This document shows, one piece after another, positions 21,222-61,178 of a stretch of 64,000 bases of DNA (positions are counted from its first letter, which is position 1; each line of letters begins with the position of its first letter). Location: NCBI GenBank assembly GCA_964016885.1, contig CAXHJY010001589.1, positions 1 to 64,000 on the forward strand. Direction: 5' to 3'. A program made the translations under genes and the position numbers. Below the pieces are notes generated by a model that had not been told where the DNA came from, ran no database searches, and saw nothing but the letters and a program-made list of their open reading frames with translations. Source of the DNA: Eledone cirrhosa. Taxonomy: Eukaryota.

Positions 21222-21496
<275 letters not shown>

Positions 21497-21611
21497 GTAT
21501 ATATATATATGTATATATATATATGTATATATATATATGTATATATATATATGTATATGTATATATGTATATGTATATACGTATATATATATATATGTAT
21601 ATGTATATACG

Positions 21612-21762
<151 letters not shown>

Positions 21763-22338
21763 GTATATATATATATGTATATATATATATGTATATGTAA
21801 GTATGCATGTATACGTACATACATATATGTATACAGACGTACAGTAGCATGCACATATATATATATATATACATATATACATACATATGCATACAGGTAC
21901 ACATACATATATGCACGTATCAGTTTAGCGGCGCTAACGTCGCTTTGTTCGTTTGTAAACAAACTGAACAGCCTGAATTTATGCCATACGGTGTTAAGGC
22001 AACCACGTCACCTTTTTGTTCAACACTGACACAGGAACGATGTACTAGTTTCAAGCTTGTTAGCTATCATCAGCACCGTTTACCCATCTGCCAGATAGTT
22101 GAACGTTCGAAAGTATATACTTTCCTTATGAAAATTAACGGCTGAGCAGCCTAATTTGCATATTGAGTGAGTTAAATCGGTCAGGCATACCGAAAACGAT
22201 AAATTGAAACAAAATGAAAACGAAATTTCATTTCTCACTCTTAGTATGGCACTTACTTAAATGTAAGTATGCATGTATACTTAATTTTCATAAGGAAAGT
22301 ATATACTTTCGAACGTTCAACTATCTGGCAGATGGGTA

Positions 22339-22383
22339 AACGGTGCTGATGATAGCTAACAAGCTTGAAACTAGTACATCGTT
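22339..22383 (+). ncRNA. Type I hammerhead ribozyme (first of 7 direct copies, plus 1 inverted)
   Basis: AACGGTG-CTGATGA-TAGCTAACAAGCTT-GAAA-CTAG-TA-CATCGTT. Predicted cleavage is after A22376. Confidence 0.85.
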
Positions 22384-22723
22384 CCTGTGTCAGTGTTGAA
22401 CAAAAAGGTGACGTGGTTGCCTTAACACCGTATGGCATAAATTCAGGCTGTTCAGTTTGTTTACAAACGAACAAAGCGACGTTAGCGCCGCTAAACTGAT
22501 ACGTGCATATATGTATGTGTACCTGTATGCATATGTATGTATATATGTATATATATATATATATGTGCATGCTACTGTACGTCTGTATACATATATGTAT
22601 GTACGTATACATGCATACTTACATTTAAGTAAGTGCCATACTAAGAGTGAGAAATGAAATTTCGTTTTCATTTTGTTTCAATTTATCGTTTTCGGTATGC
22701 CTGACCGATTTAACTCACTCAAT

Positions 22724-22770
22724 ATGCAAATTAGGCTGCTCAGCCGTTAATTTTCATAAGGAAAGTATAT
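22724..22770 (+). promoter_or_regulatory. Octamer plus PSE-like motif (putative snRNA-type promoter), repeated in the units
   Basis: ATGCAAAT-N16-TAATTTTCATAAGGAAAGTATA. Family B has ATGCAAAT-N15-TAATTTTCATAGAAAAAGCATA. Confidence 0.55.
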
Positions 22771-25483
22771 ACTTTCGAACGTTCAACTATCTGGCAGATG
22801 GGTAAACGGTGCTGATGATAGCTAACAAGCTTGAAACTAGTACATCGTTCCTGTGTCAGTGTTGAACAAAAAGGTGACGTGGTTGCCTTAACACCGTATG
22901 GCATAAATTCAGGCTGTTCAGTTTGTTTACAAACGAACAAAGCGACGTTAGCGCCGCTAAACTGATACGTGCATATATGTATGTGTACCTGTATGCATAT
23001 GTATGTATATATGTATATATATATATATATGTGCATGCTACTGTACGTCTGTATACATATATGTATGTACGTATACATGCATACTTACATTTAAGTAAGT
23101 GCCATACTAAGAGTGAGAAATGAAATTTCGTTTTCATTTTGTTTCAATTTATCGTTTTCGGTATGCCTGACCGATTTAACTCACTCAATATGCAAATTAG
23201 GCTGCTCAGCCGTTAATTTTCATAAGGAAAGTATATACTTTCGAACGTTCAACTATCTGGCAGATGGGTAAACGGTGCTGATGATAGCTAACAAGCTTGA
23301 AACTAGTACATCGTTCCTGTGTCAGTGTTGAACAAAAAGGTGACGTGGTTGCCTTAACACCGTATGGCATAAATTCAGGCTGTTCAGTTTGTTTACAAAC
23401 GAACAAAGCGACGTTAGCGCCGCTAAACTGATACGTGCATATATGTATGTGTACCTGTATGCATATGTATGTATATATGTATATATATATATATATATGT
23501 GCATGCTACTGTACGTCTGTATACATATATGTATGTACGTATACATGCATACTTACATTTAAGTAAGTGCCATACTAAGAGTGAGAAATGAAATTTCGTT
23601 TTCATTTTGTTTCAATTTATCGTTTTCGGTATGCCTGACCGATTTAACTCACTCAATATGCAAATTAGGCTGCTCAGCCGTTAATTTTCATAAGGAAAGT
23701 ATATACTTTCGAACGTTCAACTATCTGGCAGATGGGTAAACGGTGCTGATGATAGCTAACAAGCTTGAAACTAGTACATCGTTCCTGTGTCAGTGTTGAA
23801 CAAAAAGGTGACGTGGTTGCCTTAACACCGTATGGCATAAATTCAGGCTGTTCAGTTTGTTTACAAACGAACAAAGCGACGTTAGCGCCGCTAAACTGAT
23901 ACGTGCATATATGTATGTGTACCTGTATGCATATGTATGTATATATGTATATATATATATATATGTGCATGCTACTGTACGTCTGTATACATATATGTAT
24001 GTACGTATACATGCATACTTACATTTAAGTAAGTGCCATACTAAGAGTGAGAAATGAAATTTCGTTTTCATTTTGTTTCAATTTATCGTTTTCGGTATGC
24101 CTGACCGATTTAACTCACTCAATATGCAAATTAGGCTGCTCAGCCGTTAATTTTCATAAGGAAAGTATATACTTTCGAACGTTCAACTATCTGGCAGATG
24201 GGTAAACGGTGCTGATGATAGCTAACAAGCTTGAAACTAGTACATCGTTCCTGTGTCAGTGTTGAACAAAAAGGTGACGTGGTTGCCTTAACACCGTATG
24301 GCATAAATTCAGGCTGTTCAGTTTGTTTACAAACGAACAAAGCGACGTTAGCGCCGCTAAACTGATACGTGCATATATGTATGTGTACCTGTATGCATAT
24401 GTATGTATATATGTATATATATATATATATGTGCATGCTACTGTACGTCTGTATACATATATGTATGTACGTATACATGCATACTTACATTTAAGTAAGT
24501 GCCATACTAAGAGTGAGAAATGAAATTTCGTTTTCATTTTGTTTCAATTTATCGTTTTCGGTATGCCTGACCGATTTAACTCACTCAATATGCAAATTAG
24601 GCTGCTCAGCCGTTAATTTTCATAAGGAAAGTATATACTTTCGAACGTTCAACTATCTGGCAGATGGGTAAACGGTGCTGATGATAGCTAACAAGCTTGA
24701 AACTAGTACATCGTTCCTGTGTCAGTGTTGAACAAAAAGGTGACGTGGTTGCCTTAACACCGTATGGCATAAATTCAGGCTGTTCAGTTTGTTTACAAAC
24801 GAACAAAGCGACGTTAGCGCCGCTAAACTGATACGTGCATATATGTATGTGTACCTGTATGCATATGTATGTATATATGTATATATATATATATATGTGC
24901 ATGCTACTGTACGTCTGTATACATATATGTATGTACGTATACATGCATACTTACATTTAAGTAAGTGCCATACTAAGAGTGAGAAATGAAATTTCGTTTT
25001 CATTTTGTTTCAATTTATCGTTTTCGGTATGCCTGACCGATTTAACTCACTCAATATGCAAATTAGGCTGCTCAGCCGTTAATTTTCATAAGGAAAGTAT
25101 ATACTTTCGAACGTTCAACTATCTGGCAGATGGGTAAACGGTGCTGATGATAGCTAACAAGCTTGAAACTAGTACATCGTTCCTGTGTCAGTGTTGAACA
25201 AAAAGGTGACGTGGTTGCCTTAACACCGTATGGCATAAATTCAGGCTGTTCAGTTTGTTTACAAACGAATAAAGCGACGTTAGCGCCGCTAAACTGATAC
25301 GTGCATATATGTATGTGTACCTGTATGCATATGTATGTATATATGTATATATATATATATATGTGCATGCTACTGTACGTCTGTATACATATATGTATGT
25401 ACGTATACATGCATACTTACATTTAAGTAAGTGCCATACTAAGAGTGAGAAATGAAATTTCGTTTTCATTTTGTTTCAATTTA

Positions 25484-27037
<1,554 letters not shown>

Positions 27038-29890: not shown

Positions 29891-30904
29891 CAATTAAGTT
29901 AAAAAAATACATCTACATACTGAAATACATATGTAACCGGTTTTTAGATTCATACTGGTTTTTGAGGGAACACCTTCCCTCTATTCTCCAGAAAGCCAGA
30001 CAAGGAATATTGAACTAGTTTCGTTGTTGTTACAACTCATCAGCAATATTTACCTATCTACCGGCCTTTCTGGAGAATTGTAAAAGCACATATTGTTATA
30101 TGCTTTTTCTATGAAAATTAGTAGTGGGCAGACTAATTTGCATAGAGTGTGAGTACGCACCGGTTCAGCGGAGACGATAAAAACAAATAACGAAACGAAA
30201 TTAAATTTCGTTTCGTTTGTAACTCACTTTTGTATGACTGACGCTTAAACAATTAAGTTAAAAAAATACATCTACATATGCATACTGAAATACTAGTGTG
30301 TATATGAATACACACACGTATACATATGTATATGTAACAAGTCTTTCACTGGTTGCTTTACTGTGAGCACCCAGCTATTCTGTATGTAAACACACAGACA
30401 AACCGGTTTTTAGAGTCATACTGGTTTTTGAGGGAACACCTTCCCTCTATTCTCCAGAAAGCCAGACAAGGAATATTGAACTAGTTTCGTTGTTGTTACA
30501 ACTCATCAGCAATATTTACCTATCTACCGGCCTTTCTGGAGAATTGTAAAAGCACATATAGTTATATGCTTTTTCTATGAAAATTAGTAGTGGGCAGACT
30601 AATTTGCATAGAGTGTGAGTACGCACCGGTTCAGCGGAGACGATAAAAACAAATAACGAAACGAAATTAAATTTCGTTTCGTTTGTAACTCACTTTTGTA
30701 TGACTGACGCTTAAACAATTAAGTTAAAAAAATACATCTACATATGCATACTGAAATACTAGTGTGTATATGAATACACACACGTATACATATGTATATG
30801 TAACAAGTCTTTCACTGGTTGCTTTACTGTGAGCACCCAGCTATTCTGTATGTAAACACACAGACAAACCGGTTTTTAGAGTCATACTCGTTTTTGAGTC
30901 ATAC
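29891..30904 (-). mobile_element. Retrozyme-like tandem array, family B (466-bp unit, ~2.4 copies)
   Basis: Unit starts at 29891 (internally deleted), 30250 and 30716. Hammerheads AATATTG-CTGATGA-GTTGTAACAACAAC-GAAA-CTAG-TT-CAATATT at 30006-30050 and 30472-30516. Octamers at 30136 and 30602. Confidence 0.88.
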
Positions 30905-31638
30905 TTGTTATGAGTTGCGATTTAGATTTTTGAATGGGACGGATAGCACGAGGCCCAAGCCTTGGGTGTATATTGAAGGCGATGCCAACATCATTTGGGC
31001 AGTGATGATGGCACATTTTCCACATCATGCAGATAATATAACGCTCACGGCGACGTTGGAGTGAGTAAAGTTTCAGGTTTTCTAGTCGACCCCAGTATTC
31101 AAGGTCTGACATGCCATCTATCTTTTTCGTGATTGCCCTTTGAGGAGCTTCAAGTTTCATGATACTTTGTTTCGTGTGGGGAGACCACAGTGGACAACAG
31201 TATTCAAGGTGTGGTCGGGCAAAAGTAGAGAAGAGAAGGATAATGGTGTGGGAATCTCTCGACTGGAAGGTTCTGAGGATCCAGGAACACATTCTGCGGG
31301 CCATGTCAATTTTGCTGCTTATATTCGTGGCCCAGCTGATGTTGCTGTCCACGGTTACTCCCGAGTCTCTGATGTTGTTAGATGCCACGAGAGTTTCCCC
31401 GGAGGGAAGGGAGTACGGGAGTTTCAGAGCACCCACTTTTCCAAAGTGGATCAGTTCGAATTTGTCTTCGTTCAGTAACATGTTGTTCTTTTCCGCCCAT
31501 TGGGTAACAGCCAGTAGGTCTGACTGAAGGCTTATCCGGTCATCCACGCCATTGATGACCTTTTGGAGATTGGAATCATCAGCGAAATATTTTAATGTTG
31601 CTGTGTTTGATGATGTCAGTGATGTCATTAATATAGAT
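30905..31638 (-). mobile_element. CR1-group LINE family 1 fragment lacking its 3' end
   Basis: Duplicate of 14061-14794, joined directly to the family B array. Confidence 0.9.
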
Positions 31639-31779
31639 GTATATACTTATATATATATGTATATACTTATATATACATATATATGTATATACATGTATAT
31701 ACATATATATATATATATATGTATATATATGTATATACATATATATATGTATATACATATATATATATATGTATATACT

Positions 31780-31826
<47 letters not shown>

Positions 31827-32105
31827 GTATATACTTATATATACATATATATATATATGTATATACATATATATATATGTATATACTTATATATACATAT
31901 ATATATTTATGTATATACATATATACATATATATATATATATGTATATACATATATATATATATGTATATACTTATATATATATATATATGTATATACTT
32001 ATATATACATATATATATATATGTATATACATATATATATATATGTATATATATATATATGTATATACATATATATACATACATATATATACATATATAT
32101 ACATG

Positions 32106-32193
<88 letters not shown>

Positions 32194-32196
<3 letters not shown>

Positions 32197-33585
32197 CAAT
32201 GTCCAGTAGTGCTAAGTTTAATATTATGATCGCAGTTTTGGTACGAGTGAAGAAGAATGTGTCCCGAATGTGCGACCCAACAGAAATGGAAAGACACATC
32301 CAACACTTCATCAACCGTATGCAGTTCTCTGGCTACAACCAAAGAGACAGAGTGAGAGTATACGAAGGAGCCATGGAGAAGTATAAGACCCTCATAGAAC
32401 TGGACATGAAAGGAATTTTCCCATTATACAGAAGCAAATCATGGAATAGCTTAGATAGGGCTAGACATAAGATAGAGAAAGCCACCGCATGGTACGACAA
32501 CCAGAGATACCAGAGTGTCATGTTTGTGGACGCTACCCCTGGAGGGAAATTAGCTAACCAGTGTAGAAAGGCCCTGAGAAAGACCCACTTAAAGATTAAG
32601 GTGGTAGAAAAGCCAGGAACCACCATAAAATCCCTGATCAGCAAAACCTACCCTTTTAAGAAAACCCACTTTACTAATAGGAAATGTATCATATGTAAGG
32701 TAAACCCTCGGATTAACTGTAAAACTAGAAACGTAGTCTATAGCATAAGATGTACAGAGGGTACTTGCAGAAACATGACAACAACATACATAGGCGAGAC
32801 AGCTCGTAGCATAGGTGAAAGGATAGACCAATACTGGGGGGAACCTAAAGGACGAAAATACGGATCAGTACTATACGAACATGCCAGACAACATAACGAC
32901 GGTAATATAGACAACATAAAAATTAGAATAATATCTAAACATAGAAATGACCCAGCAGACAGGCAAATCAGAGAGGCCAGTGAAATAGTAATTAGAAGGC
33001 CAAGGCAAAACAGAAAGAATGAATGGAATAACAACAACACCCAAACAAACAACACTGACCTAAGAGAAGTATAAATAAATAAATAAATAAATAAATAGAT
33101 AAATAAATAAATAATACATACACAAGCAGAATAACAACAAACACATATAAACACACACTAGTAACGATAGAATACATTAACCAATACACAGTCACCCAAT
33201 CACGAACACACATCAAACACTATACACACACGCAAACACATGCGCAAAGAAGACAAAATAAAATGAACAAATAAATAAATATATACATACGGACTAAATA
33301 AAGATGGCGTAGAAAATAGAATGTAACGGGAGGAAACAATAGCACCACTGATGATGTTGCAGATGTGCAACGAAAGAACTTTGATGAACTATATATATGT
33401 GTTTGTGTCTATATTGTATCTGTATTATTTTTGACCGTTGGTCAGTCAATGGCAACATTGAGGACCGAATATATTAGATTACCGATATAAAAGACACAGA
33501 AGCGAAAAGCGAAAAGCAACCAAACAATAAGTGTGTTCTGTTACTAATTCTGGCAATATTACGAAAATATGACCCTCCCAAGTAT

Positions 33586-33591
<6 letters not shown>
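32194..33591 (+). mobile_element. PLE family 2 3' fragment (duplicate), hammerhead at 33343-33386
   Basis: Near-identical to 15360-16757. The ORF reads through the codon that is a stop in copy 1. Confidence 0.88.
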
Positions 33592-33683
<92 letters not shown>

Positions 33684-33789
33684 GTGAGGTTTTTTTTACA
33701 ATTGAAAAATAACCGGTGTCCTACACGAGTGAAAGTATAAAGAAAAAGAGATGAAATCAAAATGCAACTGGAGTCTTATTTTTTTAAAA

Positions 33790-36585
<2,796 letters not shown>

Positions 36586-36886
36586 GGTTATACTTTGGGA
36601 GGGTCATGTTTCCAATAAGAAACACACGCACCAGTAGCATTCACTTCAATTTATTATATATTTATAAATTTATGAATTTACAAATCTACAAATTTATAAA
36701 TTTCTGGTTGGTTGGTTGGTTCCACAACCAGATAGTTGTTTATATATAGTCATAGTCCTTGGTTGTGGAACCAACCAACCAACCAACCAGAAATTTATAA
36801 ATTTGTAGATTTGTAAATTTATAAATTTATAAATATATAATAAATTGAAGTGAAAGCAACTGGTGTGTGTGTTTCTTATTGGCAAC

Positions 36887-39800
36887 AGGACCCTCCCAAA
36901 GTATAACAATATCCGTTTCAACACACGATTTCAGATAAAGAATCTTACTAAACAAATTCAGAAACGAAATATCGTAAGCCTTAGCCAGGCTAACAAGATA
37001 CTGAAAACCACCATGTTCTGTTGTCTACGAAAAAGCATAACATCTCGACAACTATACTTCATAAAGCTGTGTTCCTCGTCCAGAATCTACACCAACACCA
37101 TCAATACTAACGTTAGAAGATTACAACTCACCAAAAAACAAGCAGATAGGCTAAAACGAACATTAATTCTAAACATAAAAAAGAAAATCTATAGAGAATT
37201 AAGTCATCAAGAAAAACAAAAGCGTAACCTAATACAAGAAATAGCTAGGATCACCACACCAAGAGAGAAACTAATATTTATAAGCCTTATACGCCCTGAA
37301 GAACAGTACATTACTCAAGAATGTGATAAGCACTTTAAGAGGAAACTAAAGTGGCTTAAAAAGGCAAAGCTAAATCAGGATACTATAGAGTATACCAATA
37401 GATATCCCGACAAAATTGACGGTATCAACATGGCCGACACCTCATTATCAGAAGAGTTCAACAACAAAAAACACCAACATATATGGGAACGCAAAAATAC
37501 ATAATGATGAAATGTCTGTGTTATGTTTGCCGCCGAAATTTGAGACATTCAAGAAGGTAAATATGATTAGTTGTCTGTCAGAAATAGAAAATTCATTTAC
37601 AAAACTACGCTGGAGCATCAAAAACAAAAGCAACAATATACGCACACACATATACAACACACATCCCAACAACAACAGACACACAGACACAAACAACAAT
37701 AACAACAACACACACATCAACATCAACAATAACAACATACCCAGAAACAACAACAACAGACACGCAGACACAAACAACAATAACAACACACACAACAACG
37801 ATAACACACACGGAGACAACAACAACACACATCAACAACAGCACACATCAACAACAACAACACACACGCATTCAATGCCTCTCACCACCACCACAATCTT
37901 AACAAACACACAGACACAGAAAACAAGTAATGACAGTAGCACAGAAATCACAGAAATAAGGGAAAGTAATAGGATTAAAAGGAGAAGGGAGACTAAGGAC
38001 AAAGAGAATAACCAAGACGAACACACAGACACACAAAATAGGGTAGATAACAACATTGAGCCAGTGGAAAGAGACAGGAGTAATTATGAGAGACATAGAA
38101 ACAACCATGATGCTGTTGGTGGAAATAGAAATAGAAACTACACAACTAACAATAACAATAGCACTAGTACACATAAAGCAGCAGCCTGGAACTCTCCGTT
38201 TTATAATCCCTCCGATAAATCATTCGACCTGCGACGAGTCCACGCCACGACTTTACCATTTAACAAACGCACGCAGTTGCCGTCGCAAGTCGATGAACAA
38301 ACAGAAGCACAATTTAGTATAGCTAGATCCGAACTTAGAAATATTATAGAACAGTATAGCAAGAAGCATAATAGAATGGAGGCCCAGCAACTGGGAGAAA
38401 AATCTGCAAATGGCTTGCGTAAGCTCATGCAGCGCTCACGTAATGGAGAGATAGCATGCTTTCCAACAGACAAGTCTGGCAGAATGTCGGTTGACAGCCT
38501 GCCAAACTACATCCAGGCAATGCAACCCCACATCACTAACACAAGAGAGGTAACACCACAGGAGCATGAGGATAGAGAAAAAGCCCTCAATGCCCATATG
38601 GTGATGTGGACGAATATAATGCAGCCCAACAAAAGGACTGCCAACAACTTCCAGGCCTAGAACAATGACGTGCCGGCGTTGTATGGGCTTCGAAAAGACC
38701 ATAAAACGGGCTGTGACCCTGTCGCGGGACCACCAGCACGGCCAATCTGTGGAGCTAACATTGCTAGTAACTACAGACTGTCCTATTTCCTCTCCCTGAT
38801 TCATACGCCCCATCATTGAGATGTCCCCAGATGTATGTGACAGCACGGAGGACCTCCTCAGCGGAATCGGCGTGAGTAACCGATCTGGGGACCTAACAAA
38901 CTGCATAATAGGCAGTATGGATGTTGTGTCCCTGTATCCATCTATTGACGTGGATTTTGCTGTGGAGAAATGCGTAGAAATGATCAGCGAGAGCAAGGTT
39001 GAGTTCCGTGGGATTGATACCAGTGAGCTGGGACTTCTACTTAAGCTTACCCATAGTAATAGTTACCTAGACACATATGACCTTAGCAACCTGTGCCCTA
39101 CAAGACCAGCAAGAGGCAGACCACCTACCATTACCTCAACGGCCAAGAAAACCCACACAGAAAGATCGAACGGGTGGACCAGAGCCATACGGACACCCGA
39201 AAACCACGATGAACTGAAGAAAATGATTGCACATGCGGTAGGGGCCAGCATAAAATTAACCCTTAAGGAACATATGTTCAAATTTAATGGAAAAACATAT
39301 GCCCAAGAGGAAGGAGCAGCCATTGGTGTTAGCATTGCAGGCGACATAGCTAACTTATTCATGGTATGGTGGGACAGTAGACTTAAACTTAAACTTAAAG
39401 AACAATTAGAAGACAGCTTAACCCTGATAATGTACTCCCGCCACGTAGATGATATAAACATCGTAATTAAGACACCCCCACTAGAGAACAGTCAGGAACT
39501 AGAGAAAAACACAATGGAAAGCATCCAGCAAATAGCAAACTCCATCCACCAGAGCATTAGAGTTACTATAGACTACCCAAGTAGACATCCCAACCATCGA
39601 TTACCTGTACTAGACACAGAGCTCTGGTTAGATACGATTAATAACCAAAAACAAATCCTCCATTCCCATTATGCCAAACCCATGACTTCCAAACATCTGA
39701 TCCACCGAAACTCGGCCATTTCGGACCATACCAAAATCAACATACTGATTGCGGATTTGGTACGGGTGATGAGAAATGTGTCCCGCATGTGCAACCCCGA

Positions 39801-40590
39801 AGAACTAGAGAGACACATACAACACTTCATCCACCTCCACCGTATGCAGTTCTCTGGCTACAATCAGAGAGATAGAATCAGAGTGTATAGAGGAGCCAGA
39901 ACCAAATGGGAAAAAATGGTAAATAATGACATAAATGGGACCTGCCCCTTGTATAGGAGCAAATTTTGGAATAGAATAGAAAGAACTAGGAACAAGGCCA
40001 ATAGAATAAACTCATGGTATGATAGCAATAAATACCAGAGTGTAATGTTCATCGATACAACCCCTAGAGGCGAACTAGCCTACACATTTAGAAGGGCCCT
40101 AAATAAACATAAACTCAATATTAAGATAGTAGAAAGACCAGGTACCTCCGTAAAAACACTTATTAGCAAGACATACCCGTTCCAAAGACCCTCATGTATA
40201 GATAAGAAATGTATAACCTGTAAAATAAGCCCCCATATTAACTGTAAAACTGGAAATGTAGTGTATAGCATAAGATGTACTGAAGGACAATGTAGAAACA
40301 AAAATATAGTGTACATAGGTGAGACAGCTCGTAGTATAGGGGAACGGATAAATGAACACTGGCGAGACCTTCAAGATAATAAAGAATCATCTGTACTCTA
40401 CCAACATGCTAAGATAGAACACAAGGGTAAATTAGAGAACAGAAATAAAAATAGAATCTACACACAGAAAAGACGCAATGTTTAGACAAATTACAGAGGC
40501 AATAAACATAAAAGAATTACAACCAAAATTAAATAGAAAATATGAGTGGAACAGCAACATCACAAATTACAATAAAGGACAAAATGAAAA
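36887..40590 (+). pseudogene. PLE RT/GIY-YIG ORF, copy 1 (disrupted)
   Basis: TDKSG, LRKDHK, DVVSLYPSID, RHVDD and YIGET motifs. The start codon is mutated, and there are frameshifts and a TAG at 38658. Confidence 0.85.
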
Positions 40591-40778
40591 CACACACACA
40601 CATAAAACAAACAACCAACCAATAACATGTAAATAAATAAACAAATAGATAAATGAACACAAACACACAGACACCCGGATGTGGCGCATGCGCAAACTGA
40701 GCACACAACACACACACAGAAACAAGATGTCGTAGGACAGAAGAAAGGAAAGGCACAGAAACAAAGAAAGGAATCCCC

Positions 40779-40823
40779 AGTCACTGAAGAGGTCACAGAG
40801 TGTGTGACGAAAGGACTATGACT
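40779..40823 (+). ncRNA. Minimal type I hammerhead in the pLTR (second copy at 44853-44897)
   Basis: AGTCA-CTGAAGA-GGTCACAGAGTGTGTGAC-GAAA-GGAC-TA-TGACT. Confidence 0.85.
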
Positions 40824-40963
40824 ATATATAAACAACTATCTGGTTTTGGAACCAACCAACCAACCAGAAATTTATAAATTTGTAGATTTGTAAATTTATA
40901 AATTTATAAATATATAATAAATTGAAGTGAAAGCAACTGGTGCGTGTGTTTCTTATTGGCAAC

Positions 40964-43900
40964 ATGACCCTCCCAAAGTATAACAATATCGGTTTCAACA
41001 CACGATTTCAGATAAAGAATCTTGCTAAACAAATTCAGAAACGAAATATCGTAAGCCTTAGCCAGGCTAACAAGATACTGAAAACCACCATGTTCTGTTG
41101 TTTACGAAAAACCATAACATCTCGACAACTATACTTCATAAAGCAGTGTGCCTCGTCCAGAATCTACACCAACACCATCAATACCGACGTTAGAAGATTA
41201 CAACTCACCAAAAAACAAGCAGATAGGCTAAAACGAACATTAATTCTAAACATAAAAAAGAAGATCTATAGAGAATTAAGTCATCAAGAAAAACAAAAGC
41301 GTAACCTAATACAAGAAATAGCTAGGATCACCACACCAAGAGAGAAACTAATATTTATAAGCCTTATACGCCCTGAAGAACAGTACATTACTCAAGAATG
41401 TGATAAGCACTTTAAGAGGAAACTAAAGTGGCTTAAACAGGCAAAGCTAAATCAGGATACTATAGAGTATACCAATAGATATCCCGACAAAATTGACGGT
41501 ATCAACATGGCCGACACCTCATTATCAGAAGAGTTCAACAACAAAAACACCAACATATATGGGAACGCAAAAATACATAATGATGAAATGTCTGTGTTAT
41601 GTTTGCCGCCGAAATTTGAGACATTCAAGAAGGTAAATATGATTAGTTGTCTGTCAGAAATAGAAAATTCATTTACAAAACTACGCTGGAGCATCAAAAA
41701 CAAAAGCAACAATATACGCACACACATATACAACACACATCCCAACAACAACAGACACACAGACACAAACAACAATAACAACAACACACACATCAACAAC
41801 AACAATAACAACATACCCAGAAACAACAACAACAGACACGCAGACACAAACAACAATAACAACACACACAACAACGATAACACACACGGAGACAACAACA
41901 ACACACATCAACAACAGCACACATCAACAACAACAACACACACGCATTCAATGCCTCTCACCACCACCACAATCTTAACAAACACACAGACACAGAAAAC
42001 AAGTAATGACAGTAGCACAGAAATCACAGAAATAAGGGAAAATAATAGGATTAAAAGGAGAAGGGAGACTAAGGACAAAGAGAATAACCAAGACGAACAC
42101 ACAGACACACAAAATAGGGTAGATAACAACATTGAGCCAGTGGAAAGAGACAGGAGTAATTATGAGAGACATAGAAACAACCATGATGCTGTTGGTGGAA
42201 ATAGAAATAGAAACAACACAACTAACAATAACAATAGCACTAGTACACATAAAGCAGCAGCCTGGAACTCTCCGTTTATAATCCCTCCGATATATCATTC
42301 GACCTGCGACGAGTCCACGCCACGACTTTACCATTTAACAAACGCACGCAGTTGCCGTCGCAGGTCGATGAACAAACAGAAGCACAATTTAGTATAGCTA
42401 GATCCGAACTTAGAAATATTATAGAACAGTATAGCAAGAAGCATAATAGAATGGAGGCCCAGCAACAGGGAGAAAAATCTGCAAATGGCTTGCGTAAGCT
42501 CATACAGCGCTCACGTAATGGAGAGATAGCATGCTTTCCAACAGACAAGTCTGGCAGAATGTCGGTTGACAGCCTGCCAAACTACATCCAGGCAATGCAA
42601 CCCCACATCACTAACACAAGAGAGGTAACACCACAGGAGCATGAGGATAGAGAAAAAGCCCTCAATGCCCATATGGTGATGTGGACGAATATAATGCAGC
42701 CCAACAAAAGGACTGCCAACAACTTCCAGGCCTAGAACAATGACGTGCCGGCGTTGTATGGGCTTCGAAAAGACCATAAAACGGGCTGTGACCCTGTCGC
42801 GGGACCACCAGCACGGCCAATCTGTGGAGCTAACATTGCTAGTAACTACAGACTGTCCTATTTCCTCTCCCTGATTCATACGCCCCATCATTGAGATGTC
42901 CCCAGATGTATGTGACAGCACGGAGGACCTCCTCAGCAGAATCGGCGTGAGTAACCGATCTGGGGACCTAACAAACTGCATAATAGGCAGTATGGATGTT
43001 GTGTCCCTGTATCCATCTATTGACGTGGATTTTGCTGTGGAGAAATGCGTAGAAATGATCAGCGAGAGCAAGGTTGAGTTCGGTGGGATTGATACCAGTG
43101 AGCTGGGACTTCTACTTAAGCTTACCCATAGTAATAGTTACCTAGACACATATGACCTTAGCAACCTGTGCCCTACAAGACCAGCAAGAGGCAGACCACC
43201 TACCATTACCTCAACGGCCAAGGAAACCCACACAGAAAGATGGAAGGGGTTTACCAGAGCCATACGGACACCCGAAAACCACGATGAACTGAAGAAAATG
43301 ATTGCACATGCGGTAGGGGCCAGCATAAAATTAACCCTTAAGGAACATATGTTCAAATTTAATGGAAAAACATATGCCCAAGAGGAAGGAGCAGCCATTG
43401 GTGTTAGCATTGCAGGCGACATAGCTAACTTATTCATGGTATGGTGGGACAGTAGACTTAAACTTAAACTTAAAGAACAATTAGAAGACAGCTTAACCCT
43501 GATAATGTACTCCCGCTACGTAGATGATATAAACATCGTAATTAAGACACCCCCACTAGAGAACAGTCAGGAACTAGAGAAAAACACAATGGAAAGCATC
43601 CAGCAAATAGCAAACTCCATCCACCAGAGCATTAGAGTTACTATAGACTACCCAAGTAGACATCCCAACCATCGATTACCTGTACTAGACACAGAGCTCT
43701 GGTTAGATACGATTAATAACCAAAAACAAATCCTCCATTTCCATTATGCCAAACCCATGACTTCCAAACATCTGATCCACCGAAACTCGGCCATTTCGGA
43801 CCATACCAAAATCAACATACTGATTGCGGATTTGGTACGGGTGATGAGAAATGTGTCCCGCATGTGCAACCCCGAAGAACTAGAGAGACACATACAACAC

Positions 43901-44701
43901 TTCATCCACCTCCACCGTATGCAGTTCTCTGGCTACAATCAGAGAGATAGAATCAGATTGTATAGAGGAGCCAGAACCAAATGGGAAAAAATGGTAAATA
44001 ATGACATAAATGGGACCTGCCCCTTGTATAGGAGCAAATTTTGGAATAGAATAGAAAGAACTAGGAACAAGGCCAATAGAATAAACTCATGGTATGATAG
44101 CAATAAATACCAGAGTGTAATGTTCATCGATATAACCCCTAGAGGCGAACTAGCCTACAAATTTAGAAGGGCCCTAAATAAACATAAACTCAATATTAAG
44201 ATAGTAGAAAGACCAGGTACCTCCGTAAAAACACTTATTAGCAAGACATACCCGTTCCAAAGACCCTCATGTATAGATAAGAAATGTATAACCTGTAACA
44301 TAAGCCCCCATATTAACTGTAAAACTGGAAATGTAATGTATAGCATAAGATGTACTGAAGGACAATGTAGAAACAAAAATATAGTGTACATAGGTGAGAC
44401 AGCTCGTAGTATAGGGGATCGGATAAATGAACACTGGCGACACCTTCAACATAATAAAGAATCATCTGTACTCTACCAACATGCTAAGATAGAACACAAG
44501 GGTAAATTAGAGAACATAGAAATAAAAATAGAATCTACACACAGAAAAGATGCAATGTTTAGACAAATTACAGAGGCAATAAACATAAAAGAATTACAAC
44601 CAAAATTAAATAGGAAAAATGATGGAACAGCAACATCACAACTTAAAATTAAGGACAAAATGAAAACACACACACACATAAAACAAACAACCAACCAATA
44701 A
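40964..44701 (+). pseudogene. PLE RT/GIY-YIG ORF, copy 2 (disrupted)
   Basis: MTLPKYNN start and RYVDD motif. Frameshift near 42278, TAG at 42733, frameshift near 42878. Confidence 0.85.
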
Positions 44702-45159
44702 CATGTAAATAAACAAATAAATAAATGAACATAAACACAGACAGACACCCGGATGTGGCGCATGCGCAGACTGTGCACACAACACACACACAGAAACAAA
44801 GTGGCGTAGGACAGAAGAAAGGAAAGGCACAGAAACAAAGAAATGAATCCCCAGTCACTGAAGAGGTCACAGAGTGTGTGACGAAAGGACTATGACTATA
44901 TTTAAACAACTATCTGGTTGTGGAACCAACCAACCAACCAGAAATTTATAAATTTGTAGATTTGTAAATTTATAAATTTATAAATATATAATAAATTGAA
45001 GTGAAGGCATGGGGTGCGTGTGTTTCTTATTGGCAACATGACCCTCCCAAAGTATAACAACATCGGTTTCAACACACGATTTCAGATAAAGAATCTTGCT
45101 AAATAAATTAAGAAACGAAATATATATATATGCATATATATATATATATATGTATATGC

Positions 45160-45189
<30 letters not shown>

Positions 45190-45190
<1 letters not shown>

Positions 45191-46877
45191 ATATATTTAG
45201 AAACACACAGATACATGCGGACACACACATATACATGAATGCATCCGCACCCAACCATGAGTTAAGGGTGCCAACTTCACCGATGTTGCTCAATGAATGA
45301 CTGGGACAGACCAATCCGGTTGAACCAGACTGAACCAGTATCAGAGTTAAAAATACATTATGAAGAGAGAAGAAACATTTAGATATAATTAGTAATAAAA
45401 TGTATCATACCTAAACTGCTCCTAGATTCCTCGACTACGTAGTTTCGTGGCATAAACAAAAACAATATATCATAAAGATATAGAGTCCTTGCGAGGTCTG
45501 CCGACTTATCAAGAGGATACCTCATTTTACTAGTCTCAAGAACGCGTCTCCACAACGTGAGAAAGAATCCCAAAAGGCGGAGGGGGAGATAGTCACGCGA
45601 TATAACGGTCGAGAAACAGAGCTAAGCCTCTTATAACCCCGAAGAAAATACCACGGAGGCGGAGGGGGTATTTATATCGAAGCCGTAGAAGAGGTGGTGA
45701 AGGAGGCGAGAAGTATGAGTAATGAAAGCTTTCCAGCAGTCCCCACACTTCAAAGATTGCTCGACCAGAGGGAGTTATTAACAATATATTTAGAAACACA
45801 CAGATACATGCGGACACACACATATACATGAATGCATCCGCACCCAACCATGAGTTAAGGGTGCCAACTTCACCGATGTTGCTCAATGAATGACTGGGAC
45901 AGACCAATCCGGTTGAACCAGACTGAACCAGTATCAGAGTTAAAAATACATTATGAAGAGAGAAGAAACATTTAGATATAATTAGTAATAAAATGTATCA
46001 TACCTAAACTGCTCCTAGATTCCTCGACTACGTAGTTTCGTGGCATAAACAAAAACAATATATCATAAAGATATAGAGTCCTCGCGAGGTCTGCCGACTT
46101 ATCAAGAGGATACCTCATTTTACTAGTCTCAAGAACGCGTCTCCACAACGTGAGAAAGAATCCCAAAAGGCGGAGGGGGAGATAGTCACGCGATATAACG
46201 GTCGAGAAACAGCGCTAAGCTTCTTATAACCCCGAAGAAAATACCACGGAGGCGGAGGGGGTATTTATATCGAAGCCGTAGAAGAGGTGGTGAAGGAGGC
46301 GAGAAGTATGAGTAATGAAAGCTTTCCAGCAGTCCCCACACTTCAAAGATTGCTCGACCAGAGGGAGTTATTAACAATATATTTAGAAACACACAGATAC
46401 ATGCGGACACACACATATACATGAATGCATCCGCACCCAACCATGAGTTAAGGGTGCCAACTTCACCGATGTTGCTCAATGAATGACTGGGACAGACCAA
46501 TCCGGTTGAACCAGACTGAACCAGTATCAGAGTTAAAAATACATTATGAAGAGAGAAGAAACATTTAGATATAATTAGTAATAAAATGTATCATACCTAA
46601 ACTTAGGCTTAGCTCTGTTTCTCGACCGTTATATCGCGTGACTATCTCCCCCTCCGCCTTTTGGGATTCTTTCTCACGTTGTGGAGACGCGTTCTTGAGA
46701 CTAGTAAAATGAGGTATCCTCTTGATAAGTCGGCAGACCTCGCAAGGACTCTATATCTTTATGATATATTGTTTTTGTTTATGCCACGAAACTACGTAGT
46801 CGAGGAATCTAGGAGCAGTTTAGGTATGATACATTTTATTACTAATTATATCTAAATGTTTCTTCTCTCTTCATAAT

Positions 46878-46878
<1 letters not shown>
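45190..46878 (-). mobile_element. Retrozyme-like tandem array, family C (593-bp unit, ~2.4 copies) plus inverted 5' segment
   Basis: Unit starts at ~45190, 45783 and 46376. 46604-46878 is inverted. Variant hammerheads at 45428-45517, 46021-46110 and 46717-46806. Confidence 0.85.
46717..46806 (+). ncRNA. Type I hammerhead with U3-A8 core variant
   Basis: TCCTC-TTGATAA-GT(C)GGCA...TGCCAC-GAAA-CTACGTAG-TC-GAGGA, with a GUC triplet. Confidence 0.75.
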
Positions 46879-46915
<37 letters not shown>

Positions 46916-48934: not shown

Positions 48935-49514
48935 AATTAAGTTAAAAATGTACATCCACATATGTATACTGAAATACTAGTATGCATATGAATACACACA
49001 CGTATACATATGTAGATGTACCGAGTTTTTCACTGGTCACTTTACTGTGAGTGTCCAGCTATTCTGTATGTAAACACACAGACAAACCGGTTTTTAGAGT
49101 CATACTGGTTTTTGAGGAAACACCTTTCCTCTATTCTCCAGAAAGCCAGACAAGGAATATTGAACTAGTTTCGATGTTGTTACATCTCATCAGCAATATT
49201 TACCTATCTTCCGGCCTCTCTAGAGAATCGTAAAAGCACATATCGTTATATGCTTTTTCTATGAAAATTAGTAGTGGGCAGACTAATTTGCATAGAGCGT
49301 GTTTACATACAGAATAGCTGGACACTCACAGTAAAGTGACCAGTGAAAAACTCGGTACATCTACATATGTATACGTGTGTGTATTCATATGCATACTAGT
49401 ATTTCAGTATACATATGTGGATGTACATTTTTAACTTAATTGTTTAAGCGTCAGTCATACAAAAGTGAGTTACAAACGAAACGAAATTTAATTTCGTTTC
49501 GTTATTTGTTTTTA
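48935..49514 (-). mobile_element. Family B retrozyme-like copy with inverted 5' segment
   Basis: Hammerhead at 49156-49200, octamer at 49286-49293, and 49299-49514 inverted. Confidence 0.85.
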
Positions 49515-50341
<827 letters not shown>

Positions 50342-52330
50342 ACGCTTTGGCGTACTTGTGTTTGCTATTCCTAATATTAGGTTTCCTTATGGACATGTTG
50401 TGCGAGATGATGTTGTAGCTATGTGTTTTCTTAGGTAGGAACTCAATTTCTATATTATGGCCGGATCTAGCTAATGCTTGATTATAATATTGTGAGTTTT
50501 TGCTAAATATGTTTGCGTCATAGGATAGATTAGAGATTCTATTGGATACCCCCTTAGAGATAGAGTTTAATATTGATCTAGGGTGATTAGACTTGGTATC
50601 TACGTAAATGATTTTTTCGTTAGGCTTATGGAAAGGTGTATATATTTTTGAGTCTAGGTATAGTGTGGAGTCTAGGAAGTTAACATTTTTAGTGTTTTTT
50701 GTGCATGGTGATACTAAGGTTAAAGTTTTTGAATGTCTTGTGCAATAGTTTTCTAGTTCTTTCTATATTTAATTTTCTATAAGTAGAAGTGCATCATCGC
50801 GGTACAAACCACCGTTGAGGTAAGGGAGGTCCTTATGGATTTCATTGAGAAGGTATAGGCCGACCAAATCAGTGACCTGCGCCGAGTCACTAGATCCCAC
50901 GGTTATGTCGAAGTTGTTGTGTGTATCCTTGCGTGTTCATAGTTGGTCCTCGAAGGTGATTATGGTTTTACGGGCCGCAAGGATGACATCAATCTGTGCT
51001 CTAGTCAGGTCGCTATTGTTCATGGCCATGATTAGTGCCTTATTTAATAGGATAGGGGAAATAGAGGTGTAGTATTAATTGATATCAAATTGAATAAATT
51101 TTTTGTCCTTATTATTCTTGATATCTTTGAACCATTCAATAACTTCACCCGTATTTCCCAATTGTTTAAGGTGTATCTTGTGTTTAATTTGTGGGATGAT
51201 TTTATCTAAAATTTTCTTGCTGATAATACCAATGTCGGACTTGTAAGGGCAGATAAGTCTTATCGAGGGGTTGCTGATGAAGTCCTTCTTATGATCCTTC
51301 AGAGAGAATCTAGGGGATTTTGGGGTGAATGGTTGTGTATGCCTCTGAAGTCCTAGTTTAGACACTATATTATATCCCTCTATATTAATATCTTCTAAGT
51401 TTTTCAAGGTGGTCTTCTTGTAGCTTTTATGTAGTTCATTATATATAAACTTTCTATAAGTATTATAATCTAGGCTGTATATGTTATTAGTTTTATCTGC
51501 GTGTACAATAATTTTATTACTAGTTTTGAATCCGTTAATAGAGGTGTTAAGTTTGTTTAAGAAGGTGCTGCTTCTATTATGGTGCTTATTGTATTTAATG
51601 TTCTTAACTAGTTTAACTAGATCATTTTCAAAGAAGTTAAGTAGTGTGTTATGAGGGGGGCTTTTAAAGGTTTTAAAGCCGAAGGAGTCAAATTTGTTAG
51701 TATTATTCACATTGTTAGATCTGTTTCTATCATAATGGAATGTCCTCCATCTCACTCTATTGATAAATGAATTTACACTGTTGATCAGCAATTTCTCATA
51801 TGTATTCCTGGATGGTATTGGTATGTTCTTGGTTGACATGGGGAGTTGGTCTTTGATTAGCATATTGGTAATATTATATGTCAGCTCAACAATATGGAGC
51901 AGTTAATAGTATTAATTATACTATTTATGGTTATGTAAATACGAAAACCTTTTGCAGTTATATATATTTTTATATACAAACCCTAAATAGTGGGAGGAAG
52001 TAATATATTACTACCTTATTACCAGTAAGTTAAGTAGCTCAATGTAAAAACATCAGATGATTTACAGAGCAGTTATATGAAATATAAGAATCAAAGAACT
52101 GTTCAAAACATGTTTATGCTTACAACTGTTTCCTCCAAACCGAGGTTTGGATTCTTCGGAGCAATTTATTAATGAATGAACACTTATATGACCTCCTTTT
52201 CACCCAAGAGACATACAGATACATATGCAAATATTGTGGGTCAACATTCATTACAGCATTTAGAGTGGCAGTACACACTTAGAGATTACATTCATATTAA
52301 AAGATACAATCAAAAATACAGGTTAAAATA
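50342..52330 (-). mobile_element. Naiad-like PLE: 5' pLTR plus RT, endonuclease absent
   Basis: KNIPIPS, ADKTNN, LKDHK, FDI, GLYRDD, VNFLD and SNHP motifs with premature stops. Variant hammerhead at 52117-52163. The element may extend to ~53585. Confidence 0.82.
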
Positions 52331-56899: not shown

Positions 56900-56906
56900 A
56901 TATATG

Positions 56907-56989
<83 letters not shown>

Positions 56990-57004
56990 GTATATATATA
57001 TATG

Positions 57005-57057
<53 letters not shown>

Positions 57058-57150
57058 GTATGTATATATATATATGTATGTATATATATATATATGTATG
57101 TATATATATATATATATGTATGTATATATATATATGTATGTATATATATA

Positions 57151-57502
57151 TAACTTTGAATAACTTTGAAATGTTTTGGCCAGTATTGGCCCAGGCCATG
57201 TCTAACTTAATAGCACCACCTGGCGAAGTCTTTCAATTCAGGATTTGGGCACCATGGCCCATTCGAGAAGAGAATTACTGTTTGCGGAGACATATCCGGG
57301 TGTGGGTGGTTTGTCCGGGATTACTTGGAGGAATTTGTCCAAAGACTTCTTGAATATTTTGTGCTCAGTTTCTGTTTTGACGTGTCCTGGTGTGATGTTG
57401 AAGAGAGCAGGGCCAATTGAGGTGAAATAATTGTGCCGTATTGTTGTTATGAGTTGCGATTTAGATTTTTGTATGGGACGGATAGCACGGGGCCCAAGCC
57501 TT
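57151..57502 (-). mobile_element. CR1-group LINE family 1, 3' 350 bp
   Basis: Matches 17175-17526. Confidence 0.9.
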
Positions 57503-59242
<1,740 letters not shown>

Positions 59243-61178
59243 TTATTAGTAATAATAATAAAATTGAAGACTAAAACCCAAAGAGGGCTGGATAAGGAAA
59301 ATGTATATCAAATATATAAGAACCGTAGAGCAAATATTTATTAAAATAGCAGATTAAAGTTTAAGCAAAGAATCGCTGCTTTCACCCTTAACGGGATCTT
59401 CTGAAACTAACAAAGTCAATCTGTAAACGCAGAACTGGATATTTCAAAAAACGTTGCAACCGGAGGAAGACAGGAAGACGATACTTTGGTTCGTGGTAAC
59501 GTTCGCTGGCAAAGAACGGGAAAAAACGAATAATACGTCATTAATAGGAGCGGTGAAAAACAATTACGCGCAAAGACAAAACCACGTTTATGGTATAAAA
59601 GAGGTCGTAGACTAATGTTCTCTTAGGTGGTTCTCTGACAATGAACGGAAAAACGAAGATAATAAGTCATATGTGGAGCGTGGAGAACAATTACCTAGCC
59701 GTAGGAACACGTGCAACCCTGTAGTTAGTACTAACTGTAATTGTAGGAATCGGGCTGATTGCCCCCTATCCGGGAAATGCCTCTCTAGTAACATTGTCTA
59801 CAAATGTAAGGTTGTAACACCCACGTCCCGTAGCGCCTACATAGGGTTAACCGCCAATAGTTTCAAGCAGCGTCTTTACATGCATACCCATTCTTTTCGT
59901 TACCCTCTAAGAAGGAATATGACGTCACTTTCAGCTTATATCTGGAGTCTAAAAGACAACCACACCCAATATAAGTTACACTGGGAGATCCTAGCTAGGG
60001 CTAGATCGTATAACGGAAATAAAAGACCATGTGACCTCTGCGCCGCTGAGGCCCTGGAAATACTCTACGCCACAGACCACATCTTAAACAAAAAATCTGA
60101 GGCAATTTCGGCTTGTAAACATAATTTGCACAAAACTTTCCTGTATTACAGCCCCACGTTATAACCTAACGGATAGCACGATCTATACGTGGATATTTTA
60201 CGTCTTGATGTGGGAGCTAAGTATATGTTTTGTTTATTCCTTTACTTATTTGCATAGGTAAGTATATATTAGCCGTATGTTGTGTGAAGGTATGTATACC
60301 TTCTCGTACGTATATTTGACTGTTATGGCGTATAATTTTTACATATTCTGGTATTTAGAGTTTGGCTATGTGTATACGGGAGTTTTGCGTCCGCGTGAGT
60401 ATGCAGGTTCGTATGTATGGTGGGTGTGTGTATATGTGTACTTCTTGTTTTAGTTGACTTACGTCTCCGAACATTCGTGTATTTATATGTAGATATGCGT
60501 GTGCGCTTGTTATATACGTATTTATTTACTTATATACGTTTATATAATTATTTATTTATTTGTACACAAGCATACACACACACACATATTTATATGTGCG
60601 TGGTTTTGTATACCTATGGTAAGGTTTTGCGTATGCTTGTGTATGTACGTATTTGTTTGCGTGTATGTATTTATTTGTTTCTATTACTTCTGTATCGTAT
60701 TTATTTACTTTGTTCTTAACTCTGTAGCGGAGATTCATTTGGTCTCCTAGTTAGAATTTTAGTTTACGATTTCTGCTATACCATTTACGTGGTTTTGTCT
60801 TTGCGTGCTATTGTTCTCCACACTCCACATATGACTTATTATCTTCGTTTTTTCGTTCATTGCCAGAGAACGTCTCTATGCACCACCTAAGAGAACATTA
60901 GTCTACGACCTCTTTTATACCATAAACGTGGTTTTGTCTTTGCGCGTAATTGTTTTTCACCGCTCAAATTAATGACGTATTATTCGTTTTTTCCCGTTCT
61001 TTGCCAGCGAACGTTACCACGAACCAAAGTATCATCTTCCTGTCTTCCTCCGGTTGCAACGCTTTTTGAAATATCCAGTTCTGCGTTTACAGATTGACTT
61101 TGTTAGTTTCAGAAGATCCCGTTAAGGGTGAAAGCAGCGATTCTTTGCTTAAACTTTAATCTGTTATTTTAATAAATA
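59243..61178 (+). mobile_element. Naiad-like PLE 3' fragment with inverted 5' pLTR
   Basis: ~59334-59690 is the reverse complement of ~60810-61178, and these repeats enclose a GIY-YIG ORF. Confidence 0.85.
59691..60164 (+). pseudogene. Naiad-type GIY-YIG endonuclease domain (5'-truncated)
   Basis: CNCRNRADCPLSGKC linker, IVY...YIG, FKQR, LSAYIW, CDLC, LNKKSE and CKH motifs. Confidence 0.85.

Follow-up and report, generated by a model that had tools for sequence, protein, structure and literature searches.

The tandem array in the window, i.e. the stretch of 64,000 nucleotides of Eledone cirrhosa DNA analysed here, is probably best explained as one insertion of a high-copy, non-coding retrozyme family. 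Each unit has a predicted hammerhead, and the copies, which have two fixed end sites in (TA)n, were likely written by the reverse transcriptase-endonuclease of a Penelope-like element (PLE). The family's architecture, fixed ends, copy number, covariation and match to a host motif were observed directly.

Architecture and ends of the insertion

The array is a single insertion of a dispersed non-LTR retrozyme family (family A), flanked by unstranded (TA)n target microsatellite on the left (21222..21794) and on the right (25485..27037). It consists of an inverted arm on the minus strand (21795..22280, 486 nt or 1.04 units, identical in sequence to the unit) and a tandem arm on the plus strand (22281..25484, 6.87 units of 466 bp). 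Unit positions are numbered from the hammerhead cleavage site. The sense 3' end of the inverted arm lies at fixed site 1 (unit position 248-251), and the tandem arm runs from unit position 371, where its first unit begins without the octamer motif, to fixed site 2 (310). The repeat at 22281-25484 has a period of 466, 6.9 copies and 99% matches, in agreement with the seven near-identical units of about 466 bp described in an earlier note on this DNA; the single SNP at 25270 and the one TA indel listed there were also found (one unit measures 468 bp). The array of that note (21795-25483) is real in its plus-strand tandem units, but positions 21795-22280 are the inverted arm, which had been missed. 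Inside the unit, an alternating purine-pyrimidine/TA tract (22495..22612, plus strand) is predicted to form a long hairpin; its length differs among copies, with units of 440-591 bp. The 'tail' (22624..22686, plus strand) lies between the two fixed end sites. A short hairpin is predicted around site 1, which falls in its loop, whereas the sequence at site 2 is TAT|CGT; we infer that both form a pair of start sites for reverse transcription (RT).

The window as a whole is a nest of retroelements within (TA)n tracts. At its very edge, positions 1-31 belong to a further family A insertion, of which they form the end at site 2. Nested LINE/PLE blocks are repeated at 13505-17526, 30905-34066 and 56900-57502, and a 3.2-kb block (14061-17176) recurs at 30905-34066 with 97% identity.

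The first set of insertions comprised 51 loci with 97 arms, i.e. the 50 loci behind the 100 matches listed plus the window. Fixed ends were found in 80 of the 97 arms, 36 at site 1 (243-256) and 44 at site 2 (300-312); the other 17 arms end in the internal TA tract (10), elsewhere (6) or at the locus edge (1). Head-to-head pairs number 34 among the 51 loci, with both ends fixed in 21, and all 21 combine one site 1 with one site 2. A second set of 34 further loci (81 arms), picked by the downstream pattern with the core not required, contains 14 pairs; both ends are fixed in five, each with one of each site. Here 32 of the 81 arm ends fall under 'other', being mostly alignment breaks in diverged subfamilies, and are not counted as ends. 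The sister family B has ten pairs in 16 regions, and one of each site in 8/8 pairs with both ends fixed. Overall, the rule of one site per arm holds in 34/34 such pairs, the sites lying about 60 nt apart. Arms within a locus differ by 0.9% (median) versus 5.4% to arms of other loci (30 loci). According to the junction tallies, the target is (TA)n or AT-rich.

Hammerhead core, copy number and sister families

The first plus-strand copy carries a type I hammerhead with extended stem I at 22315..22401 (core 22346-22376) and predicted cleavage after A22376. A17 of the seven plus-strand cores is at 22376, 22842, 23308, 23776, 24242, 24708 and 25174; an eighth hammerhead lies on the minus strand in the inverted arm 21795..22280 (A17 at 22043). 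In order, the motif comprises CUGAUGA, a stem II of 4 bp with U.U as its closing pair, GAAA and then stem III, which consists of one A-U pair plus the palindromic CUAG and is followed directly by A17. Stem I has 6-7 bp and is lengthened by two further helices, the extended form reaching a folding z of -3.5 (0/200 shuffles equally stable). Seven type I hammerheads with extended stem I had been described before, and both the cores and the predicted fold agree with that description; as a correction, the closing pair of stem II is U.U rather than G-C. Rfam returned no match at the gathering threshold, with the best hammerhead model at 18.5 bits (E 0.15), and the ribozyme call therefore rests on core sequence and covariation. 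Rfam miRNA matches on the TA hairpin were rejected as compositional.

In a selected set of 16 variants of families A and B, 11 core positions are invariant (C3-A6, G8, A9, G12-A15.1, U16.1), while N7, loop II and H17 vary and 7/15 stem pairs change on both sides. Stem cells are paired in 95.8% of cases vs 34-50% with the alignment slid; pairs-with-change are not above shuffles (112/500), and the covariation counts represent few independent events (A vs B and a few subfamilies). An invariant core amid varying N7, loop II and stem pairs implies selection for cleavage by the predicted ribozyme. The hammerhead is weak and probably dimer-acting: the predicted monomer fold is not a cleanly active core, with inner stem I pair probabilities of 0.18-0.8. 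Family A combines the one-pair stem III and palindromic tetraloop of HHR_Amex1 with the U.U at the stem II base of HHR_Amex2, both from axolotl as described in PMC7229834; axolotl retrozymes carry each of these weak features and are reported there to cleave well only as dimers. For Xenopus, cleavage in vitro of only one of nine dimers is reported (10.64898/2026.07.22.740005).

Copies in the genome (3.0 Gb) were counted by sequence patterns. The exact family A hammerhead core (40-mer) has 10,122 matches (control 0), the 32 nt following the cut 13,326, and a generic core covering A and B 40,754 (control 52); the generic-core matches among the 100 listed are all of type A or B. By this core count, about 40,000 units would make up roughly 0.6% of the genome. 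Family A is dispersed: 70 Mb of a single contig contain at least 50 of its loci. It has a GC content of 0.36, under the 45% taken as the limit for retrozymes, without an ORF of at least 150 aa inside the tandem arm, and the RT plus GIY-YIG ORF of an autonomous PLE was not found in its array. By their tandem type I hammerhead units, non-coding nature and high-copy dispersal, as read from the genome, families A and B are non-LTR retrozymes, as the earlier note had proposed for the array. The metazoan non-LTR retrozymes of coral, mussel and axolotl described in PMC7229834 likewise consist of tandem non-coding type I units with low GC content and high copy number. They measure about 170-400 nt vs 466 nt here, and circles are shown there, whereas family A is known from sequence; to their features it adds a host U6-type element and PLE insertion footprints.

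Family B occurs in the window on the minus strand at 29935..30898 (2.07 units of 466 bp), with the same motif and hammerhead architecture and a G-C pair at the base of stem II. A second, unstranded B insertion (48935..49515) has head-to-head arms ending at the two fixed sites of this family. Further hammerhead repeats were observed. A 310-bp family (L104:5700-7301, L186:2650-3800) has U.U at stem II, an ACGCGU stem III and head-to-head arms of the same architecture, without the U6-type motif. Window positions 45190-46881 hold a 593-bp tandem repeat with an inverted arm, whose minus strand contains a hammerhead-like core of the U3-A8 variant with palindromic stem III; its predicted fold is not hammerhead-shaped.

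The U6-type motif and RNA

The motif ATGCAAATTAG (22724..22734, plus strand) matches an element at -76 to -78 of the host U6, U6atac and MRP genes. The arrangement ATGCAAAT-N16-TAATTTTCATA, previously read as an octamer/PSE-like promoter, is present upstream of the core, and its first motif is indeed common to host small-RNA promoters. The supposed PSE, TAATTTTCATA (22748..22758, plus strand), is instead an imperfect inverted copy of the motif at 22724-22734, i.e. a dyad or hairpin arm: it approximates the reverse complement of TATGCAAATTA, with which it pairs in the predicted fold, and a subfamily variant preserves the number of matched pairs. A TATA-like box (22766..22773, plus strand) follows 42 nt after the motif start; the transcription start is predicted at about 22796-22801.

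The host consensus, ATG(C/G)(A/T)AAT(T/G)AG at -76 to -78 with TATA at -30, is present in 5/5 host genes tested (three distinct U6 promoters, U6atac and MRP), and a four-gene matrix recovers the held-out MRP site at -77 with 14.4 bits. Family A scores 14.8 bits, a value reached in 1/400 shuffles and 3/1000 genomic windows, and family B 21.2 bits, reached in 0/400 and 0/1000; the genomic windows exclude snRNA loci, the U6atac locus itself scoring 23.8 bits. Since A and B share ancestry, both scores amount to about one test. The 11-mer of the motif is identical in these diverged families, and positions 346-375 have no variant common to three loci (110/430 positions overall; loci not selected for the motif). 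The element was found in 0/14 further U6 matches, mostly retrocopies (best 4.5 bits). Upstream regions of U1, U2 and RNase P (nine regions) reach at most 7.2 bits and use TCAGT instead; in U1 and U2 it lies near -57, with no octamer within 110 nt, and no TCAGT at such a distance upstream of the hammerhead was found in A or B. By this alignment to host upstream regions, which the earlier note had suggested, the motif matches a U6-type (type 3 Pol III) upstream element and not those of U1 or U2, and the comparison of that note with a Pol II snRNA-type promoter as in newt satellite 2 therefore fails. The newt satellite 2 promoter reportedly consists of octamer and PSE, and that of the schistosome hammerhead satellite is said to be of the A/B-box type. 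Both are hammerhead repeats with internal promoters (PMC2220036); the snRNA promoter of the former is described there as used by Pol II, whereas the family A motif matches U6, U6atac and MRP.

Sense-strand T runs reach at most T4 in the window array; T6-8 occur within units in 9/28 family A loci and T5 or more in 6/6 family B loci. These resemble the host terminators (T5-10), which would argue against Pol III read-through. An octamer-plus-TATA arrangement could also be used by Pol II.

Retrozyme sequence is present in RNA. Run X6 is RNA by six spliced joints in RPL3, none of which occurs in the DNA run X1, and 74 of its contigs fall on a 932-nt retrozyme stretch. Its depth relative to X1 is about 0.001-0.004 for the retrozyme vs 0.035-0.06 for three intronic repeats; because this ratio is low and contig depth is a poor measure, it is taken for the presence of the sequence in RNA only. 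Two X6 contigs stop at 22841-22843, beside a cleavage site (one study; not counted as evidence). Runs X4 and X5, with single low-depth contigs and RPL3 not covered, were left out.

Whether the motif pair and TATA box act as a working promoter is finely balanced, and on the sequence we lean slightly towards it. They might instead belong to a retrozyme without a working promoter. In that case the pair would be left over from a U6-type promoter once captured and would persist because it forms a hairpin in the RNA, while the units would be transcribed only as passengers of host transcripts. Such a relic, which we consider possible but somewhat doubtful, touches the transcription step only and is compatible with the rest of the preferred explanation. 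It would fit the spacing of motif and TATA, which at 42 nt (A) and 43 nt (B) is 4-5 bp short of the 46-48 nt of host genes, the more so as this promoter type is reported to vary in spacing by only 1-2 bp in insects (PMC1761439). Motif and inverted copy form a predicted hairpin (z -5.0 in B, -1.5 in A), the TATA box also sits in a predicted hairpin, family D has no motif, the contigs of the single RNA run do not exceed what ordinary repeats show, and metazoan retrozymes seem, in the account of PMC7761336, to have neither a promoter nor a motif pointing to a helper. A hairpin would, however, tolerate compensatory change, whereas the exact 11-mer is shared by A and B; moreover, its match to host Pol III genes is correctly oriented, with a TATA box downstream of it and the cleavage site following after 119 nt (A).

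Several host loci deserve mention beside these promoters. Two kinds of upstream element occur in this one animal, the U6/U6atac/MRP type and a TCAGT type; RNase P, U1 and U2 (L161:1400-1500, L043-L070) have TCAGT and TATA-like boxes in common. A second U6-type element in a U6 tandem array (L003:150-210, contig C19), with TATA 46 nt downstream, precedes sequence without Rfam match, possibly an unannotated Pol III gene. In some U6 array copies (L007, L008, L010-L012) TATA and gene are separated by about 190 bp of inserted sequence. A stretch beside a U6atac copy (L166:1390-1492) shows, on the opposite strand, similarity to the promoter region of the retrozyme (E 3e-5), with no hammerhead seen downstream of it.

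Insertion enzyme and template

A PLE with RT and GIY-YIG-type domain lies in the window on the plus strand (36582..45123); it is made up of two copies in tandem, their frames broken, plus an inverted arm. It has two fixed ends 60 nt apart (19/39 matches); among PLE pairs in the fetched loci, judged by eye, six are of mixed site, and one diverged pair (L187) has the same site twice. Its protein shows RT motifs, a GIY-YIG-like domain and an upstream CxxxxCxxC, a layout described for Neptune/Nematis (PMC8557442); the best named relative of a neighbouring PLE protein is from Octopus vulgaris (66%), which supports the mollusc host supposed in the earlier note and makes an octopod likely. In the 329 kb of sequence searched, no PLE terminus showed homology to A or B; only the TAT|CGT of site 2 is shared by A, B and this PLE, which is a candidate for the kind of helper involved. 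Hammerhead-like cores were further observed in the termini of several PLE families, whole or as fragments, at 36582-45123, 15393-16756, 32194-33590, 49512-52315 and 59616-60164.

PLEs are known to insert into microsatellites and to have inverted arms and a tail on one side only (PMC8557442), and in vitro a PLE protein is reported to nick and extend both strands of AT-rich DNA and to start RT at two RNA sites bounding the tail (PMC11167929). As described in these two sources, EN+ PLEs resemble family A in their partial tandems, inverted 5'-truncated arm, one-end tail, (TA)n or AT-rich targets and two start sites. The tail measures 30-40 nt there, compared with about 60 nt in A and 70-74 nt in B, and unlike EN+ PLEs family A has no ORF, a full hammerhead with extended stem I, and arms that can both exceed one unit. 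We infer that enzymes of the PLE class made the retrozyme insertions, as their genomic footprint suggests. Retrozymes and a proposed PLE link are already known (PMC7229834, PMC7761336, 10.64898/2026.07.22.740005, PMC4209133). The same conclusion, that PLEs mobilise retrozymes, is drawn for Xenopus and other vertebrate retrozymes as PLE derivatives (10.64898/2026.07.22.740005), whose units of 51-972 bp include the 466 bp found here; that case builds on co-occurrence and pLTR homology in Xenopus, the present one on the insertion footprint in a mollusc. Our search of the freely available literature listed no paper on cephalopod retrozymes, paired fixed retrozyme ends or a U6-type element in a retrozyme.

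We propose a five-step cycle, from transcription to arm joining. Tandem units would be transcribed, likely helped by the internal U6-type element and TATA box. Paired hammerheads would cut the multimer into monomers of 466 nt, to be circularised by a host ligase. At the (TA)n target, a PLE protein would nick the two strands and prime them on the RNA, using site 1 for one strand and site 2 for its partner; synthesis of each arm would then continue beyond the cleavage site, over 0.1 to more than 14 unit lengths. The cDNA ends would finally join head-to-head with little or no microhomology, giving the order (TA)n, inverted arm, tandem arm, (TA)n.

The RNA template, as far as genomic copies record it, carried the unit repeatedly. 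Both arms cross the cleavage site in 15/21 pairs, locus selection having forced only one arm across it, and a cleaved linear monomer therefore cannot be the template; both arms exceed one unit in 6/21. Inner arm ends are scattered, without any at the cleavage site, and 0 of 97 + 81 arms start between unit positions 464 and 22. In a check for a pile-up of inner ends at the predicted transcription start, 13/183 cores appeared truncated a short way upstream of it, at scattered positions with a slight excess at 412-424. Since arms traverse the cleavage site repeatedly and none starts there, the template was a circle or an uncleaved multimer. The near-identity of units, said earlier to fit a single rolling-circle event, is not diagnostic, 9/119 arms from other loci being equally close; the two-arm architecture across loci is better evidence for repeated passes over one template.

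The preferred reading has to be weighed against two others. An ordinary satellite, or a SINE mobilised by LINEs, with a chance hammerhead-like string would agree with the missing Rfam match at threshold and with the abundance of LINE-type RT ORFs in the window; it is nevertheless highly improbable in view of two fixed 3' ends, of which each arm has one, the head-to-head arrangement, insertions that lack a poly(A) end and dispersal over the 50 or more loci, and is largely refuted by the paired fixed ends in A and B together with core invariance and covariation. The other, which we regard as unlikely, retains the PLE machinery and has it copy a linear, uncleaved read-through multimer from existing arrays, with circles, if any, as a by-product and long arrays growing afterwards by unequal exchange. 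Because PAc is reported to use unprocessed RNA in vitro (PMC11167929), a linear multimer could serve as template; the hammerhead is weak (one-pair stem III, U.U in stem II), most arms are shorter than three units (51 loci), and variant blocks are repeated in L191 and in a 31-unit family B array, some long arrays having been reshaped later by local duplication. Against a linear template stand the core invariance that implies selection for cleavage, inner ends without a clear pile-up at one transcript start, and young arms of 7 and 14-15 units in which variants are almost lacking and whose end falls precisely on site 2; judging from the copies, such long arms and the core selection favour a circular template. 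That the family is, in full, a self-transcribing circular RNA replicon of 466 nt, with a captured and re-spaced U6-type promoter, self-cut and closed, around which a PLE rolls in both arms, we offer only tentatively.

The enzyme that mobilises animal retrozymes, the role of circles as templates and retrozyme transcription are stated to be open in PMC7229834, PMC7761336 and 10.64898/2026.07.22.740005. The insertion ends described here point to an enzyme class and to the exact RNA positions where RT should start, so that a well-defined assay in vitro, on a substrate of 466 nt, can address the question. The strict rule of one site per arm extends the two start sites reported for a PLE (PMC11167929) to a both-strand model in vivo. 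Should the internal promoter work, the family would depart from the reported absence of promoters and offer a compact unit for circRNA expression in cephalopods; if the replicon reading is true, rolling-circle target-primed reverse transcription would have left its record in the approximately 40,000 genomic units.
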